From NCBI GenBank assembly GCA_963842885.1, contig CAWJIE010000010.1, forward strand, positions 1 to 23,298: a DNA stretch of 23,298 nt. Direction: 5' to 3'. Of the stretch, positions 7,809-22,180 are shown piece after piece; within the stretch, counting starts at the first letter, position 1; each line of letters opens with the position of its first letter. This DNA is from an uncultured Nitrososphaerota archaeon (GTDB lineage: Archaea; Thermoproteota; Nitrososphaeria; Conexivisphaerales; DTJL01). Position numbers and translations under genes: made by a program. The notes beneath the pieces were generated by a model. The model worked only from the letters and a program-made list of their open reading frames with translations. It did not search any database and had not been told where the DNA came from.

Positions 7809-8003
7809 CTAGGCTGCTTCCGGGGCCGATAAACCCAGAAGAAACTTGCGTGCCACCTCGCGGTTTCCCGGTCTCCTTCCTTTGACCACATCCACGGCCC
7901 AATCTATCGCCGATTTATTCAAATCGCGCTGCTGCTGGGCGGCCTGGGCCTCTTCGACGGAGTCGTGGACTTGGCCCTTGGGTACTAACCGGGATAGGAG
8001 CAT
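7809..8003 (-). CDS. small hypothetical protein
   Basis: 64-aa ORF with protein-like helical composition (SAIDWAVDVVKGRRPGNREVARKFLL); no recognised motif. Confidence 0.35.
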   Translation of the reverse strand: MLLSRLVPKGQVHDSVEEAQAAQQQRDLNKSAIDWAVDVVKGRRPGNREVARKFLLGLSAPEAA

Positions 8004-8132
8004 AACATGTTATGCTCAAGTGCAAGGGAGTCCGGTGGGCCTGAGCGGGCTCGGTGGGGCTCGCCTATTATTCTTAGCGGCTCCATCTGATTCATAGGCC
8101 GGAATCGACATTCTCCTCCAAGGACCAGAGTC

Positions 8133-11150: not shown

Positions 11151-11357
11151 ACGGTCACGATTACTATGGCCAAGGTGATAAGGGTTTGCTATCTGAATCG
11201 TTCTCAAGTCGGGATAGGAGCATGGGATGCCATTCTCAAACCGGACTACACCGGCGCCCCGATCGGCATCTCCATTGTTTCAGCTGCCAAGACGCTTTGA
11301 CGCTACCTTTTTGAACACCAGCGCTGTCACACTTTCAACAGAAGGAGAGGGCCACAT

Positions 11358-14031: not shown

Positions 14032-14548
14032 GCTCCACAGCTCCTTCCTGGTCCATGGGAGGACTACCTTTTATTCCATGCATACTGGCTCTCATCCAAT
14101 CTCTTCGGGAGCCTCCTCCCAAACCCTCATGAGGGGTTGAAGGTGCGAAAACGGGGCCCTCCATCATCCGTCGCGCTGAAGTTGAGACCGATATCCGGAC
14201 TCGAGAGAGGGAATCAGTCGCCCGAAGGGCGCATTAGGAGCTCTCCGATCGGGACCGTAGAATAGAGTGTCATGCTTGAGTGGGCTCGAGCTCGACTTCC
14301 GCTTCATTTCTTGGAGATTGCCTCTACGTCATCAGCCCATTCCGTTCTATTGGGATAGGAACATCGGAACCGGGGTTCAAGCACAACAAGATCCTGGTGG
14401 GCTGTGACGGATTCGGGGTCAGATGGACTCTAAACCAGGCTAAGAATGGAATTCTGTATCTGCGATATGGAATTCGAGTAAGATTAGCAGAGCAAGCGCC
14501 TTTCAGCTCGTCTTGAAGTACCTCCAGGGTATCTTGAGGCCTGCGGAT

Positions 14549-15349: not shown

Positions 15350-15614
15350 CTCTACCCTACCGCATATTCTGACTGCGTTGGATATGTACTTTGACTCATC
15401 TGCTCTCCGGCCGGGATAGGGGCATAGGATGCGATGTTCAGGCGCAACAGTGTCTGATGGGCCGGGACCGATCCATCGCCAAGGCTATCACGAGCGGGCG
15501 CCGGCCTCCTTGTCGCTGAAACTGGTTCGTGGTCAATCACACTAGTCCTGCGCTCGGTGCCCTCTCACGATGGTGGAACTCTTATGTGATTCACAAGTCC
15601 GAAGAATCACTGAG

Positions 15615-17070: not shown

Positions 17071-17302
17071 GGGGGAGGCCAGCGACTGACGCCACCGCCA
17101 TGAGAATGGCGATATCGTGGCCTCGTGAGAATCCGGTGGGAATCATGGGACAGACAAGCCACACGGACAACTAACGTTGCCCACTCCATCTAAGACCGAG
17201 CAGGACGTGGTCTTGCCGAACGCCTTCGAGAAGACGCCCATGCTGCACCTTCAGAACGGGGCCTAGCATCCAATCTTTAATAGTAAGTAAACATGATAAT
17301 AT

Positions 17303-17656: not shown

Positions 17657-17996
17657 CCGAAGCAGTCATGAAGGGCGGTCCTGGCAGCGCGCGTCCTCAG
17701 CGGTCATCGGTCTGATGACGACCCCACGCCTCCTGTTGGACGTCATGACCTTGGGTGTCTATCGCGGCTGGAGAGGAAGTCAATATCGTGGCCTGACCGA
17801 CGATGACTGTCGCTTGATCATCTTTATGTTATTGAAAACAACAGAATAATTCAGGGAGAGAAGGGCGGTCAGCGGGCCCGAAGTGCCCATACCGAATTGG
17901 GTTCAGACCCCATTTGTCAAGCCATTCCATCCACTGTACATCTTCGTCATGCTGGTAACTGTCGTCGGATGACCTGTTCAGAAGAGTGGATGCTTC

Positions 17997-18278
17997 TCAA
18001 GCCTTGGGCTTGGCTGTGGCTGCCCTGACAAGAGAACGTTGTTCACGTCGTTTGAGCCAATATCGCACCAGCAGGCCTACGGCTGGTATCCCCAAGCAAA
18101 CTAGGCCGTCAACCACATCACCCTCGTACAAGAGGACGAGCCCGACAAAGACAAACGCAATCAAGAGAACCCAGTATATGTTTCCCGTCCAGTCCATCCC
18201 ACCTTCCTTGTTCATCGCCCAACTCTTGTCGTATGTTGGAGGCTGACCCAATTCCAGCTTGAAATAGTGTAGGGGCAT
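17997..18278 (-). CDS. small 2-TM membrane protein
   Basis: IYWVLLIAFVFVGLVLLY / GLVCLGIPAVGLLVRYW plus basic tail; the start may be an internal Met. Confidence 0.65.
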   Translation of the reverse strand: MPLHYFKLELGQPPTYDKSWAMNKEGGMDWTGNIYWVLLIAFVFVGLVLLYEGDVVDGLVCLGIPAVGLLVRYWLKRREQRSLVRAATAKPKA

Positions 18279-18397
18279 ACTTCAACCCTTTGATATCCGA
18301 GGGAAGTTGACAGCACCCTGGACCCGATGCCTAGTTACCAATGCCCTCTTTGGAAGCGTTTAAGACGGAGAGATGGCTATTTCTAATGGGAGATTGA

Positions 18398-18565
18398 ATG
18401 CCCAAGGAAGAGTTGAGGGAGACGCGATGCAGAGTTTGTGGGAAGGCGTCTGACCAGCTCACGGATGGCGTCTGTGAAAAGTGCAGGGGCGAGAACAAGA
18501 ACGTGAAGAACGCCTGGTTTGAAGGATACAAGGGCCGAATCGGTAGGCCTGTCCTCGGCCCATGA
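18398..18565 (+). CDS. 55-aa Zn-finger microprotein (not in ORF track)
   Basis: MPKEELRETRCRVCGKASDQLTDGVCEKCRGENKNVKNAWFEGYKGRIGRPVLGP*: CxxC-x11-CxxC; TTTAAG at ~18359-18364. Confidence 0.75.
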   Translation: MPKEELRETRCRVCGKASDQLTDGVCEKCRGENKNVKNAWFEGYKGRIGRPVLGP

Positions 18566-18637
18566 GACGATGGTAGACGCTGGGTCTTGACCAAGTAGAG
18601 GTTCCATATTCCGTGCATCTTCGTCAGAAGTATGAGG

Positions 18638-18667
18638 TTCAATCGTAGGCTTGGACCTGCGAATGGG
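18638..18667 (+). repeat. 30-bp site copy A1 (arm-CTTGGA-arm)
   Basis: TTCAATCGTAGG-CTTGGA-CCTGCGAATGGG. Confidence 0.9.
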
Positions 18668-18758
18668 CTGACTGGATATCTATCGCTGCTGGAAAAGGAG
18701 TCAATATCCTCGATCGGCACTGTCTCATCGAATCGGCTTGCCTAGTTCAGCTGCCTGG

Positions 18759-19280
18759 TCAGTGATCGGAGCGATGTCTGCGGATGTTCATTTCTTCGGT
18801 CAGAACCCATGTCTTGCCACCATCGTGCGTCTCCTCCGAATGCCACCTAAAGGAACTTGGCTTGACATCTGAAAAGACCCAACGCTCGGGATGACCCTCC
18901 TTCGTCTTGTTCTCAAGGACGATCTCCTCCCCCACCTTCCGGGCGATGAACGTCTGCACTGTAGAACTGAGTGCGGAGATCCAGGTGCTCCGCCAGGCAT
19001 CAATCGAAGGGTCATAGACCCTGACCGTGGTGCCAACCGGGATGACCCTTTTGGAACCTTCGTCATAGGTCATCCATACATCCTGTATGGCCCTGCCATC
19101 GAGGACCCACCCGAAATGCACTTCGCCCTTCTCCTTGAACGCAACTCCGCTGGGACTTGGGCTCCTGACGCCGACGATATCCCAATCCCCCACGAACTGG
19201 CCGAAGAGCATCAGCTTGTCCTTGAATTCCGGATGCGGACCATTCGAAACCAGGCCTCTGATTCCCTTTCGTTCCATCAT
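18759..19280 (-). CDS. DUF1579-like beta-rich hypothetical protein
   Basis: FGQFVGDWD, GEVHFGWVLDGRAIQDVW, GTTVRVYDP..DAWRSTW, SFRWHSEETHDGGKTW. Confidence 0.85.
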   Translation of the reverse strand: MMERKGIRGLVSNGPHPEFKDKLMLFGQFVGDWDIVGVRSPSPSGVAFKEKGEVHFGWVLDGRAIQDVWMTYDEGSKRVIPVGTTVRVYDPSIDAWRSTWISALSSTVQTFIARKVGEEIVLENKTKEGHPERWVFSDVKPSSFRWHSEETHDGGKTWVLTEEMNIRRHRSDH

Positions 19281-19342
19281 TAGTCCGCCCCTGACCTATA
19301 CTCTTAAGGGCTGCTATCGTCTACGAGAACGCACTGACTGAA

Positions 19343-19522
19343 TTGAGCTGGCTTACTCTCAACTGCAAGAACTGCCACCGCGACTTTGAGATCAGCGAGT
19401 TGCAGAGGAAGCTTGTCATTCCATGGTTTCTGTTCGGTAGGGTGCCAGGATATCGCTGGTACCTTACGCGCTGCCCTTATTGTCGCAAGAAGAGCTACAA
19501 CCGCCCGTCAAGCGATAGCTAA
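19343..19522 (+). CDS. 59-aa Zn-ribbon microprotein (not in ORF track)
   Basis: TTG start; MSWLTLNCKNCHRDFEISELQRKLVIPWFLFGRVPGYRWYLTRCPYCRKKSYNRPSSDS*: CxxC...CPxC; stop ends directly before site A2. Confidence 0.75.
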   Translation: MSWLTLNCKNCHRDFEISELQRKLVIPWFLFGRVPGYRWYLTRCPYCRKKSYNRPSSDS

Positions 19523-19552
19523 CCGCAAGACGGGCTTGGACCTACGAATGGG
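19523..19552 (+). repeat. 30-bp site copy A2
   Basis: CCGCAAGACGGG-CTTGGA-CCTACGAATGGG; followed by CTGAC as in A1; left arm degenerate. Confidence 0.85.
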
Positions 19553-19711
19553 CTGACCTCGTTCATCTTTAAGCTATTGAAAACAACATGTCAATTGGAC
19601 GAGAACCACATCGGCTGGCGGCCGCGGTATTCTTGGCTTGTGCTTCAAGCTTCAAGTGACAACGTTAATACGCCAGAAAGCAGGATTCGACGAGAAGAGG
19701 GCCAACAGACA

Positions 19712-20758
19712 TTGCCGCAATGCCCGATCTGCCACAGTGAAATAACTGCAGATTATGGCTTCTGTCCGAATTGTGGAGCACGTCTCGCTCCCGCGACCGC
19801 AGGCGGCAACGAGCGGCCTATAGAGAGCGGGAATACTGGTCTGCAAGGACAGCGCAAGTGGTCTAGGATCAGGGTCGCAGCGGCAATGATCATCGTACTG
19901 CTGGTGGTCGTTTCGGCGTTCGTCTTGATTTCATCAGTTTCCCCGACCCGTTCTATCAACCCCCAAACGAATTGCCCGCCGAGTCCCACTTCGTCGACCT
20001 ACATAGCGGCACCGAATCCGAACTATGACGCCCAGGAGGTGATGGTATTCACCCAGACATACACCCAGCTGGAATTCAACGTGACCGCCGTGGCTCAGTG
20101 CGACGCCAATGGGTACGGGCCGTCGTACCTTCTGAACGGCCTCTCGAATACAGGTTACTGGTACCAGGTAGGGATAAACTGGGACTGGCCACTTCAGACA
20201 GGCGGTTACAACTCGGGCTTCGGGTTTGTCAGTGAGGCATGGGCGCCGGGGGGACTGACGCGCGCGCCCCCTTCCGTCGCGTTCTCAGGCATCGTCAACC
20301 AAGGTGACATCATCGAACTGAGCCTGTCGTTCAACGGAGGCCAGGTGGTCGCTTCTGCGCGCGACTTGAACACGGGAGCAAGCGGCTCGATGAGCTATCC
20401 TGCGAGGACGGCGACCATGTTCGTCGGGTCGCAAGCGCAGGAGTCGCAACCAAGATTCTCGTTTGCGACGGAAGGTTACTTCACTGGCCTGATGACAGAG
20501 TGGTACCACGTAAGCGCGAACTACACTGGACCCGAGCGAAGTGTGAACTACTCCGAGAATACGATGTCAATAGCATCGGCTACGCTTGGCGTCGGCGAAT
20601 GGAACTTCACAGCTGCCACCCCCAGCTCGGTCTACTCTGACTTGGCCAACAATGGGAATGCGATAGATCTCGGTGCGCAGCCAAACCAGCTTCAACAGTT
20701 CGCGCTCAACGGATTCACGCTCTCAGCGGACGCGTACGAGTTCGTGACCGGGCCTTAG
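19712..20758 (+). CDS. Zn-ribbon + single TM + extracellular beta-rich domain protein
   Basis: CPIC...FCPNCGARL, one TM helix, then YGPSYLLNGLSNTGYWYQVG...FTGLMTEWYH with many NxS/T sites (thermopsin-like in character). Likely TTG start at 19712; the 19577 start lies inside a repeat block. Confidence 0.8.
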   Translation: MPQCPICHSEITADYGFCPNCGARLAPATAGGNERPIESGNTGLQGQRKWSRIRVAAAMIIVLLVVVSAFVLISSVSPTRSINPQTNCPPSPTSSTYIAAPNPNYDAQEVMVFTQTYTQLEFNVTAVAQCDANGYGPSYLLNGLSNTGYWYQVGINWDWPLQTGGYNSGFGFVSEAWAPGGLTRAPPSVAFSGIVNQGDIIELSLSFNGGQVVASARDLNTGASGSMSYPARTATMFVGSQAQESQPRFSFATEGYFTGLMTEWYHVSANYTGPERSVNYSENTMSIASATLGVGEWNFTAATPSSVYSDLANNGNAIDLGAQPNQLQQFALNGFTLSADAYEFVTGP

Positions 20759-21014
20759 CGTCACCAACGAGAGGTTCTCGAAGAACATCGATTGGTCGTG
20801 CACGGAAGACGAGGGATGATGACCCACGTCGACAAATGCGACCTTCCTTGCCTGATCGATCATCTGGATTACACCCCTGACTGATGATTCGAGGTCTCCA
20901 ATTCCGGGTGAAGCGGGTAGTCAGGGCAGGAATATGGACCTCCCACTGTCTAAGCTAAGTGATGGACGCGGGATGACTGCTGCCACCTGATATTCTTGGG
21001 TCTGGGTATTCGAT

Positions 21015-21044
21015 CTCAGAGGTAGGCTTGGACCTGCGAATGGA
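21015..21044 (+). repeat. 30-bp site copy A3
   Basis: CTCAGAGGTAGG-CTTGGA-CCTGCGAATGGA. Confidence 0.9.
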
Positions 21045-21092
21045 CCTGATTCAGTTTCAAGTCTGCCCAACTCGTAACTTAGGCAAACAGAG

Positions 21093-21506
21093 TCAGCCCT
21101 CTCGTGGCAAGCTCCGGCGAATAATTGTCGGCCTGACGAAATAGCCCATCTTCCAAAGAATGCCCAGTGTCACAAGAGGCAACAGACAGAAGGCCAGATC
21201 TATGTACGCGCCAATGACGCCCTGAGCTGCATAGCCCCACGCATCAATTGTGAGGATGAGACATGGATAGATTGCCACGAAGCTGAACCAGCTCTTCCGG
21301 AAGACCCAGAACGCCGAGATGAAAGATATGGCGCTCGCCAGCAAGTAGGGCCAGGCGTCGATCCCCAATAGTATCGAAGTAAGCGGCAGAAGGCCGGTCT
21401 GCTGTGTTATGACAAACAGCACGCCGCAGATGCAATACAGCCCTAGAAAGATAAGCCATAGAAGCGTGATTACTGCAAGTTTCGGTTTGAACGAATTCAT
21501 GGCCAT
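21093..21506 (-). CDS. 4-TM membrane protein
   Basis: 137 aa, four hydrophobic segments; TATAAAA at ~21546-21552 on the minus strand. Confidence 0.75.
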   Translation of the reverse strand: MAMNSFKPKLAVITLLWLIFLGLYCICGVLFVITQQTGLLPLTSILLGIDAWPYLLASAISFISAFWVFRKSWFSFVAIYPCLILTIDAWGYAAQGVIGAYIDLAFCLLPLVTLGILWKMGYFVRPTIIRRSLPREG

Positions 21507-21582
21507 CTCCTAGCTGTCCATTGAACAAGAGTAGAGCGCTTGACCTTTTATACGAATCGTTCTCTCCGCGGGCCTCTTGAAT

Positions 21583-21612
21583 CTCAGGCGTAGGCTTGGA
21601 GCTGCGAATGGG
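21583..21612 (+). repeat. 30-bp site copy A4
   Basis: CTCAGGCGTAGG-CTTGGA-GCTGCGAATGGG. Confidence 0.88.
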
Positions 21613-21751
21613 AGCCACCGGAAGATGCTCTTGGATGGTTGTTGCGGCTGGGAAAGAAATCAATATTCTTCTTCAAGTCGCCGCCGGAATCAGGAATGGA
21701 AGTAGCGTTCAATGACACTAGAGTCGGGTACGAATCCTGCTGACGGGTTCG

Positions 21752-22180
21752 CTACCTCGATGCCTCTTCCGTATCCCGCAGCCGCCTGGCCAACTCCCTG
21801 TCGATCATCGCGGGCACGTCGGGGAAGAGGCGGACGAGGGCCTCGACGGACCATTGGGAGAGCGCAAAACAGCGGGTGGGCTCGATGGCGATGACTTGGG
21901 TCGGCCGTGGCTGGCCATGGAGCACGGCCATTTCGCCGAAGAACTCTCCCCCGCCGAGTTCCGAGAGCAGCATTCCCTCCCTCCTCATCTGGACCTTCCC
22001 CTCGAGTACTATGAAGAGGGCGATGCCACCTTCGCCCGCCTCGACGACCTTCTCGCCCGGCCGGAAGGACAGCTCCTGCCCCAGCTTGACTACCGTCAGC
22101 AGGTCCTTCCGCCCTAAACCAGCGAACAAGGCCACCGAACCCAGAGCATCCACCAGATCGCTCGGCGGGTCTGCTTCCAT
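21752..22180 (-). CDS. stand-alone cyclic-nucleotide-binding domain protein
   Basis: LFAGL..., F.PGE.VV.AGE.G..LFIVLEGKV, GEFFGEMAVL...PRPTQVIA; TTAAA ~27 nt upstream on the minus strand. Confidence 0.92.
   Translation of the reverse strand: MEADPPSDLVDALGSVALFAGLGRKDLLTVVKLGQELSFRPGEKVVEAGEGGIALFIVLEGKVQMRREGMLLSELGGGEFFGEMAVLHGQPRPTQVIAIEPTRCFALSQWSVEALVRLFPDVPAMIDRELARRLRDTEEASR

Follow-up and report, generated by a model that had tools for sequence, protein, structure and literature searches.

The window analysed here, a stretch of 23,298 nucleotides (nt) from an uncultured Nitrososphaerota archaeon of the order Conexivisphaerales (assembly GCA_963842885.1, contig CAWJIE010000010.1), carries four direct copies of a short intergenic site built around a near-invariant block of 16 bp, GGCTTGGACCTGCGAA. 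We found that the site belongs to a genus-specific family with some 60 members in a 2-Mb genome: it is present in four of the five species of one genus and essentially nowhere else. In gene units that two of these species share among different neighbours, sequence identity breaks off at the edges of the block or within it. The arrays may represent an undescribed archaeal route for shuffling accessory genes, integron-like but with another kind of site. Site-specific recombination at the core is plausible. That the units are exchanged site-specifically by a recombinase acting in trans, for which we have candidates only, has in our judgement not quite an even chance.

The genome of the window (G000) comes from a peat/soil archaeon and comprises 11 contigs and 2.03 Mb, with 58% G+C and 87% completeness; the window is the entire contig C10. 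Genes were called by ourselves from open reading frames (ORFs), which class 81% of the genome as coding. We compared it with the relatives G001, G002 (sister species), G003 and G004; the genes that the species share are 73-88% identical. A sequence-only reading of the window had proposed a local array of four same-strand sites spaced by 885, 1492 and 568 bp and identical in the central CTTGGA. The four copies are real. Their 19-nt core lies on the + strand at 18648-18666 (A1), 19533-19551 (A2), 21025-21043 (A3) and 21593-21611 (A4), with 0, 1, 0 and 1 mismatches, respectively, spacings and CTTGGA are as described, and the core had no match in 100 dinucleotide shuffles of the window. The same reading had suggested scanning the genome and its relatives with a profile of the site. 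This revealed a clustered family of 62 copies in G000 (nhmmer, E < 0.01), and the idea of a single local array had to be abandoned, as the copies are spread genome-wide in many clusters and as single copies.

When at most one mismatch was allowed in the 15-nt core, four species of the genus had 61, 24, 61 and 49 copies, the fifth had one, a single genome of another genus of the order also had one, and the other 35 of the 41 relatives' genomes searched had none. The reversed pattern, used as a control, gave 0-2 matches per genome. Searching one genome for each of 185,579 species, we found the exact 19-mer in 53 places, 52 of them in three genomes of the genus and the remaining one in a Woesearchaeota genome. 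A viral carrier was considered and rejected: the sole match in IMG/VR, on one viral contig, sits in unrelated coding DNA.

We aligned 99 copies with at most two changes in the 15-mer (54 from G000 and 45 from fetched loci of G002). The 16-bp block is preceded by CGT (82-88%) and a purine (G 55%, A 39%), and further upstream by a less strict GGA and a pyrimidine-rich stretch. On its other side come a variable A/G run and, after it, ATGGGCTGAC, the whole site measuring roughly 35-40 bp. The distance from GCGA to TGGG is 1, 2, 3, 4, 5 or 7 nt in 11, 3, 10, 3, 1 and 1 of 44 copies, and 15 have no nearby TGGG. The core is identical across species and its flanks are species-specific (GGACGTR in G000 and G002, GGCGTG in G003). 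The arms of A1 are indeed complementary at 8 of 12 positions when counted by eye, as had been claimed, but across the family the outer arms are not symmetric and the inverted pair around CTTGGA shrinks to the inner 6 bp (CGTRGG / CCTGCG), a weak symmetry. Since the invariant element is 16 bp long and not 6, the crossover cannot be placed at CTTGGA, where the first reading had put it. Single-stranded DNA folds of the site were no better than those of shuffled sequences (six folds, z from -0.89 to +0.71). A coding origin was rejected: the core reads GLDLRMG-stop in one frame, but the variable GCGA-TGGG distance and the frames, which differ among copies, speak against it.

Almost all copies are intergenic (59 of 62). 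Adjacent copies lie within 5 kb of each other in 39 of 54 pairs, whereas 2000 random trials gave 8.6 such pairs on average and at most 17; the spacing ranges from 0.2 to 6 kb, and 37 of the 39 close pairs are co-oriented. In blocks of up to about 100 kb, all sites point the same way. We rejected gene strand and GC skew as the source of these blocks, finding no correlation with either, and replication origins as well: neither of the two Orc1/Cdc6 genes is at a switch, the first being 3-7 kb away from one that a single weak copy defines and the second standing within a block. The neighbouring genes of 57 sites were convergent in 20 cases, divergent in 10 and co-directional in 27 (site sense in 11, antisense in 16), compared with 424 convergent, 421 divergent and 1453 co-directional pairs among the 2298 intergenic spacers of the genome. 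That the sites have no preferred orientation towards their neighbours speaks against a role as promoter, operator, terminator or mRNA element.

Several other identities were discarded. Small zinc-ribbon genes lie upstream of only 3 of 118 sites. The best match of the site to the 31 tRNA genes spans 10-12 nt (E 0.13-2), and the tRNA gene nearest to any site is 939 nt away, the next 2.6 kb, which does not fit a tRNA-derived att site. We found no regular CRISPR array (25-40-nt repeats spaced by 55-100 nt) in the genome. Nor were the outcomes that the sequence-only reading had named against itself observed on testing: the sites keep no fixed distance to a TATA box and no constant position relative to neighbouring genes, and they do not look like the end of a miniature inverted-repeat transposable element or insertion sequence (IS), since similarity extends over some 40 nt, to 90 nt on the right side only, with no terminal inverted repeats and no partner end.

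Evidence on recombination comes from the comparison of 20 site-rich loci of G002 with G000. At the nucleotide level, five units common to the two genomes sit among different neighbours. For example, G002 C69:302-824 corresponds to G000 C8:4315-4848, while the homologue of the adjoining unit lies at G000 C2:33702-34027; similarly, G002 C112:2221-4391 corresponds to G000 C2:28864-26692. The alignments drop from about 80-94% identity to unrelated sequence at the core edges or within the core. At the upstream site the left flanks are unrelated; the two sequences become alike at or within the core and stay so across the spacer, ATGGGCTGAC and the unit. At the downstream site they still agree over the left flank and the core and part at the spacer or right after ATGGGCTGA, beyond which the next repeat module (see below) differs (i against ii). 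These switch positions put the joints inside the invariant block, with no finer placement possible. A comparison for gain, loss or reordering of modules had been suggested, and the shared units are indeed found in different neighbourhoods; the expected breakpoints, at CTTGGA, have to be widened to the 16-bp core.

Turnover of the units is high. Among 35 site-to-site units of G002, 20 have no nucleotide homologue in G000, nine have a partial one and six are covered over at least 50% of their length, so that gene content between sites is not conserved in relatives, as the reading of the window had anticipated. Between modules 32% of the bases align to G000, compared with 56% at more than 3 kb from any module. 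In six loci of G003 (75 kb, 29 sites), 12 segments of at least 300 nt match G000 and two match the G002 loci. Homologous segments keep their orientation towards the module closest to them in 18 of 18 pairs at a distance of up to 300 nt and in 24 of 25 at up to 1500 nt. Where G000 contains paralogous units, sites flank them at both loci.

Joints at the core, high turnover and uniform orientation thus partly support a cassette-array reading. The sites mark the joints between small gene units of 0.5-4.7 kb with one to three genes, which form highly variable, co-oriented arrays; some of the units, at least, have a TATA-like promoter of their own. Under this reading the site would act as a crossover site, and recombination within the invariant core would allow units to be swapped, dropped or acquired. 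With the crossover there, the left sequence (pyrimidine-rich stretch, GGACGTR) would travel with the upstream unit and the right sequence (A/G run, ATGGGCTGAC and module i, ii or iii) with the downstream one. A sequence-specific recombinase would act in trans, as on integron cassettes in integrase-less clusters, and units might pass through a circular form with one complete site. Candidate enzymes would be the distant Xer-like tyrosine recombinases or the IS110-family recombinase of G000. The fullest version of this proposal, namely that one Conexivisphaerales genus has a genome-wide, undescribed cassette-exchange system with an invariant 16-bp double-stranded crossover core, cassette-borne arms, promoter and terminator modules supplied by the cassettes themselves and a trans-acting recombinase that is neither IntI nor XerA, seems to us somewhat unlikely as a whole.

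The site is often directly followed, on the same strand, by one of three small repeats: module i (34 copies, TATA-like), module ii (26 copies, a hairpin with a 10-bp stem) and module iii (39 copies, about 60 nt). All three are also found without the core site. With at most three mismatches, modules i and iii occur in G000 and G002 only, among nine genomes of the family, with weaker module-i-like matches in G003; because of this limited range, no part of the mosaic is as well conserved as the core. With a GGACGT...CTTGGA...CTGAC frame of its own, module iii may be a long relative of the core site. A recurrent G+C-rich stretch (GGGGCGGGAGGCTGGCCCAC..GCCGTTGGTGG) often comes after module i, with the module ii hairpin behind it; G000 examples are C4:137297-137422, C8:6677-6788, C5:293267-293391 and C3:267613-267656. 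Such a succession could correspond to a promoter, a short transcript and a terminator, and thus possibly to a family of small-RNA genes.

An IS110-family IS, whose protein of about 370 aa has Transposase_20 and DEDD_Tnp_IS110 domains, is present in three copies in G000 (C3:1400-2710, C3:189210-190520 and C7:18990-20300). All three are inserted in module iii at TATTGCTG|CTGG, two of them right after the core. The element has terminal inverted repeats (ATGAAAGACGCCC/GGGCGTCTTTCAT), and its non-coding left end of 290 nt contains words resembling both junctions and may therefore encode a guide (bridge) RNA; a search for an orphan guide RNA of the element matched only the three IS copies. In bacteria, IS110 relatives target REP, attC or dRS3 repeats. 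The insertions show that the mosaic is a recognised landing pad, not that the IS110 enzyme moves the units. Since such an element already targets the paralogous module iii, a recombinase acting on the core might be of the guide-RNA-using IS110 type.

In the window, sites, modules and units are arranged as follows.

17749-17803 and 17813-17863, + strand: module iii and module i at the left edge of the array (nhmmer, repeats D4 and D12); core site absent, GGACGT just upstream
17997-18278, - strand, and 18398-18565, + strand: unit before A1, with a 93-aa gene and a 55-aa zinc-ribbon ORF (no Pfam family or a weak DZR_2 match)
18634-18675, + strand: site A1, invariant core at 18648-18663 (placed at 18638 by the sequence-only reading)
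18670-18738, + strand: module iii, directly 3' of A1 (nhmmer)
18759-19280, - strand, and 19343-19522, + strand: unit A1-A2, with a 173-aa gene and a divergent 59-aa zinc-ribbon ORF (no family)
19532-19563, + strand: site A2, a degenerate copy, core at 19533-19548
19556-19614, + strand: module i (TATA-like, TCATCTTTAAGCTATTGAAAACAA...), directly 3' of A2 (nhmmer)
19577-20758, + strand: unit A2-A3, a single gene of at most 393 aa with a zinc ribbon, a predicted membrane span and an unknown domain
21011-21049, + strand: site A3, core at 21025-21040
21046-21109, + strand: module ii (hairpin GTCTGCCCAA...TTAGGCAAAC), directly 3' of A3, overlapping the 3' end of the next gene
21093-21506, - strand: unit A3-A4, a 137-aa membrane-protein gene (ORF)
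21577-21623, + strand: site A4, core at 21593-21608, C>G at 21601
21627-21689, + strand: module iii, directly 3' of A4, the last repeat module of the window
21752-22180, - strand: gene of a 142-aa cyclic-nucleotide (cNMP)-binding protein of a multi-copy family, beyond the last site

Each interval holds one gene or one divergent pair, in agreement with the earlier description of their content. Two of the sites deviate from the consensus: A2 is 2 nt short in its left arm and carries G>A in the right one, and the change in A4 is immediately 3' of CTTGGA. The 137-aa gene has its own TATA-like box (TTTTATACGA on the + strand) at about 21540-21552. Beyond zinc-ribbon matches, the interval proteins gave nothing in Pfam, and nothing in NCBIfam or PADLOC. 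The 59-aa zinc-ribbon ORF and A2 are kept as a block in G001, G002 and G003, and the synteny of the window stops at 17072-17078 in all relatives. Among 80 metagenomic loci with the amidohydrolase neighbour, one has any module, an inverted module iii right after a GNAT gene. A homologue of the 393-aa gene in G004, the species of the genus without the site, has no core site alongside. Beside it (L019, G004 C11, 1180-1197) lies GTAGACTTGCGAAAGGCC, which resembles the core minus six bases; as it is single-copy in G004, it is probably a chance match or may be a relic.

We also compared public sequencing runs, as assembled contigs. Three contigs (X1 record 2, X2 record 11 and X3 record 18) are 98-99% identical to the window, and their match to it begins precisely at position 18673, the edge between A1 and module iii; before it they have 900-2600 other letters. 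This difference may reflect another neighbour in those populations or an assembly artefact at the repeat, both of which are possible. The bins from 17952 to 18439 have almost no cover in X1 and X2, which in itself proves nothing. The joints in the public runs have short sides of 20-32 nt and match other module junctions, e.g., that of module iii at C5:83370, and are thus no evidence of excision.

G000 encodes five tyrosine-recombinase matches, one IS605-type TnpA with TnpB, the three IS110-family copies and one serine recombinase. None of these lies in the window: whole-genome searches with PF00589, PF01797, PF02371 and PF00239 had no match on C10, as the reading of its sequence had noted. The test that it had proposed, for a nearby XerA or tyrosine integrase, came out negative: no XerA, integrase or other recombinase is linked to the site or co-distributed with it, and we found no bona fide XerA. 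By their profile scores, the tyrosine recombinases are distant Xer-like proteins (C5:9.5-12.1 kb, C3:398.6-400.1 kb and C4:323.4-324.5 kb); none stands beside the start of an array in this 87% complete genome. Some members of their families lie 0.1-2 kb from modules in G000, G002 and G003, in regions that are rich in mobile DNA anyway. The only IS605-type element (G000 C5:212190-213990, locus L014) consists of TnpA (Y1) and a TnpB of 461 aa and is not associated with the repeat.

A number of results weigh against a dedicated exchange system. No recombinase gene is found in the window or consistently beside arrays, the families of the G000 tyrosine recombinases also occur in genomes without the site, and these proteins reach only 51-91 bits against the archaeal XerA model (cut-off 220) and, in three of five, 19-29 bits against the integron-integrase model TIGR02249 (cut-off 265; no match in the other two). 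The inverted symmetry of the site is restricted to 6 bp. The site is one of four co-oriented small repeats in changeable order, and not simply one site per cassette. Among the six well-covered G002 units, the G000 homologue has sites at both ends in two cases, at one end in one and at neither in three. Internal ends of homology lie within 40 nt of a module in 25 of 107 cases (23%), compared with 4.7% of random positions, which we estimate to be about what is expected if all homology ends fall in intergenic DNA. In the window, the other boundary of the conserved block of 59-aa ORF and A2 does not coincide with a module, and, judged by its paralogue on C3, the cNMP-binding gene 3' of A4 stands the other way round with respect to the modules; it probably lies outside the array or has been inverted. 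Finally, plain homologous exchange at a repeat of 20-40 bp would give the same junctions and is a serious rival.

This rival can be cast as a dispersed mosaic repeat, akin to repetitive extragenic palindromes (REPs) and bacterial interspersed mosaic elements (BIMEs) or to neisserial intergenic mosaic elements (NIMEs) with dRS3: core and modules would be small intergenic repeats, selfish or structural in nature, that come to lie where they do no harm, and homologous or short-homology recombination would reshuffle the units with no dedicated enzyme. We consider it rather unlikely. In its favour are the changeable order of the four co-oriented modules, the single copies, the modules without a core and the excess of convergent neighbours (20 of 57 sites against 424 of 2298 spacers). 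A 4.4-kb segment common to G002 C136 and G000 C3, like other homologous segments, has sites in G002 and none in G000 (its flanks are too diverged to align for a comparison of empty and filled sites). The use of module iii as an IS110 target and the GTRG head, with a short core stem that tolerates G-T pairs only on the motif strand, are further points in its favour. RecA-independent deletion between short direct repeats is the subject of one paper (PMC5426353). Such a repeat, on the other hand, fits poorly with a stem of 6 bp that folds no better than shuffled sequence, with the absence of terminal inverted repeats from a similarity that ends within about 40-90 nt, and with copies that are direct and do not alternate as in BIMEs. 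There is no RAYT (REP-associated tyrosine transposase) either, the lone Y1 transposase standing beside TnpB, unflanked by the site; like the IS110 protein, it occurs in G000 and G002 and was not found in G001 or G003. Moreover, all five resolved junctions fall at the short core and not in the longer modules, which are better homology substrates, and the core is invariant across species whereas modules i and iii are not. The latter contrast is hard to explain without sequence-specific recognition.

The core could bind a genus-specific protein (a regulator, an insulator or a chromatin boundary factor), cassette turnover being unrelated, as the invariant block with its tandem GGAC / TGGAC / TGAC words and the fixed distance of 15 of 62 cores upstream of the TATA-like module i might suggest. 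We hold this to be improbable: position and orientation relative to neighbouring genes are not constant, 20 of 57 sites lie between convergent 3' ends, a same-strand ORF of at least 100 aa follows only 3 of 34 copies of module i, and the switch of homology inside the core between species is left unexplained. Still less credible, and in our view very improbable, is a role as RNA, in which a strand-specific hairpin (CGYRGG-CUUGGA-CCUGCG) would serve, e.g., as a processing or stability signal. Pairing at the two variable stem positions is kept in 95-96% of 108 copies if G-T is allowed; one of these positions faces a G and is T or C, the other faces a T and is G or A, so that they pair only if G-U counts and show a strand-specific tolerance that recalls the uniform orientation of the sites. 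But the changes are transitions on one side only and thus not true covariation, sites with co-directional neighbours have no sense bias (11 sense, 16 antisense), and a convergent gene pair surrounds many of the copies. The four modules yielded no structure on consensus folding, and no Rfam family reached threshold, the best overlap being the ATPC motif with 23.8 bits against 45.

The cassette-exchange reading invites comparison with known site-specific systems. The pdif modules are bounded by inversely oriented 11-6-11 sites (28 bp) on which Xer recombinases act, with no need for a recombinase on the module. The present sites resemble dif and pdif in their short arm-spacer-arm design, in bounding gene modules and in the lack of a module-borne recombinase; they differ in being direct (37 of 39), in their 6-bp arms and in the absence of a protein at the XerA cut-off. 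The original proposal of a dif-module or integron-like system survives in its array architecture and not in dif arms, IntI or XerA.

Chromosomal integrons have species-specific site flanks, as is the case here, and IS110-family elements are generally known to target integron repeats too. To our knowledge, the archaeal integrons reported so far use bacterial-type attC sites. These are defined as imperfect palindromes that form single-stranded hairpins with R''-L''/L'-R' boxes (GTTRRRY), a definition that does not fit the present site: it has no attC-like fold and no GTTRRRY/RYYYAAC box in its consensus, so that the claimed distinctness from attC arrays holds. By its molecular parts the system is neither an integron nor a dif module, as attC fold and boxes, IntI and attI all fail. 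The arrays do consist of two or more co-oriented sites less than 4 kb apart with cassette content that differs between relatives, as in integrons and in clusters of attC sites lacking integrases (CALINs). As far as the relevant passages of Ghaly et al. 2022 (PMC9668308) describe them, integrons and CALINs, archaeal ones included, share with our arrays small, mostly single-gene, lineage-specific units between direct sites, joints inside a conserved part of the site and arrays with no integrase nearby. By contrast, our arrays have no R/L boxes, single-stranded hairpin, IntI or attI; genes stand in both orientations and at least some units have their own TATA-like promoter; many small arrays and single sites replace the one platform; and the site is invariant in sequence, whereas attC conserves structure.

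Passages of Bentley et al. 2007 (PMC1797815) describe neisserial dRS3 as a site of roughly 20 bp with hundreds of copies, in arrays with mosaic small repeats, into which a phage transposase integrates; the authors proposed it as a recombinase target that promotes the exchange of flanking genes. On that description our arrays are NIME-like, with a clustered short site, interleaved mosaic small repeats, variable genes and IS110-like integration. The same passages present dRS3 as a symmetric inverted repeat with a variable centre, whereas the archaeal site is asymmetric and co-oriented with an invariant centre, and as flanking RS repeats of 50-150 bp, whereas whole genes lie between our sites, in an archaeal host. 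The dRS3/NIME mosaic is, next to integrons, the closest conceptual relative, and if the core is a passive homology substrate instead, it would offer a clear archaeal parallel to it.

REP repeats have a GT[AG]G head. In the parts of Nunvar et al. 2010 (PMC2817692) that concern REP/BIME repeats and their RAYT transposases, these are likewise abundant, short, intergenic and imperfectly palindromic. The head and the targeting by IS110-family elements are also shared with our site. The very short stem, the direct copies and the absence of a RAYT set the archaeal site apart, and we found neither a stable hairpin nor a Y1 gene flanked by inverted REPs. Thaumarchaeal integrated elements measure several kb or more. 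According to the pertinent sections of Krupovic et al. 2019 (PMC6563490), they have short att sites (median 17 bp), integrate via tyrosine recombinases and form arrays by repeated integration; short direct repeats thus flank inserted DNA in both cases, but those elements carry their own integrase and their att sites are often tRNA-derived, whereas the units here are of 0.5-4.7 kb, with no integrase and no tRNA similarity. In the main text of open-access papers we found no description of the repeat or of non-attC archaeal cassette arrays.

Little is understood of the ways in which archaea acquire, keep and rearrange accessory genes. If the cassette reading is true, a platform whose different site is defined by its sequence would amount to a second and independent answer to the problem that integrons solve, the 16-bp word would be a simple marker for the flexible gene pool of these peat/soil archaea, and the search for the enzyme could start from a defined DNA substrate.

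Genes of defence type are common within the arrays and in their surroundings. The C4 array has, between its sites (G000 C4:337890-341130; L059 15889-19129), genes for a methyltransferase, a DpnII-like restriction enzyme and an N6/N4 DNA methylase. A ParE/RHH toxin-antitoxin pair is encoded just outside the C2 array, whereas AbiEii (C2) and MazE (C4) lie several kb from the nearest site. The 142-aa protein encoded beyond A4 matches the cNMP-binding part of Pycsar-type defence effectors (PADLOC), without an effector domain, and is multi-copy in the genus (G000 C3:5809-6240; G002 C69, C81 and C138; 86-89% nucleotide identity). At G000 C2:103880-104640, two arrays diverge outward from a 670-bp segment with a 50-aa zinc-ribbon ORF and a core-like 3' end (...GGTTGGGCCTGGACCTCTAG); the segment recurs in G002 C62 with other neighbours. 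The window contains two further repeats. The 37-nt family D1 (TCGGGATAGGAGCAT...ATGCTCA) is intergenic, with four copies that are 62-78% alike (7982-8018, 11202-11238, 14242-14278 and 15404-15440), two of which share a 53-nt extension. Near the contig end (22519-22586), the GC-rich repeat D5, with a period of 18 nt, lies in overlapping ORFs and is probably a Gly/Pro-rich coding repeat.

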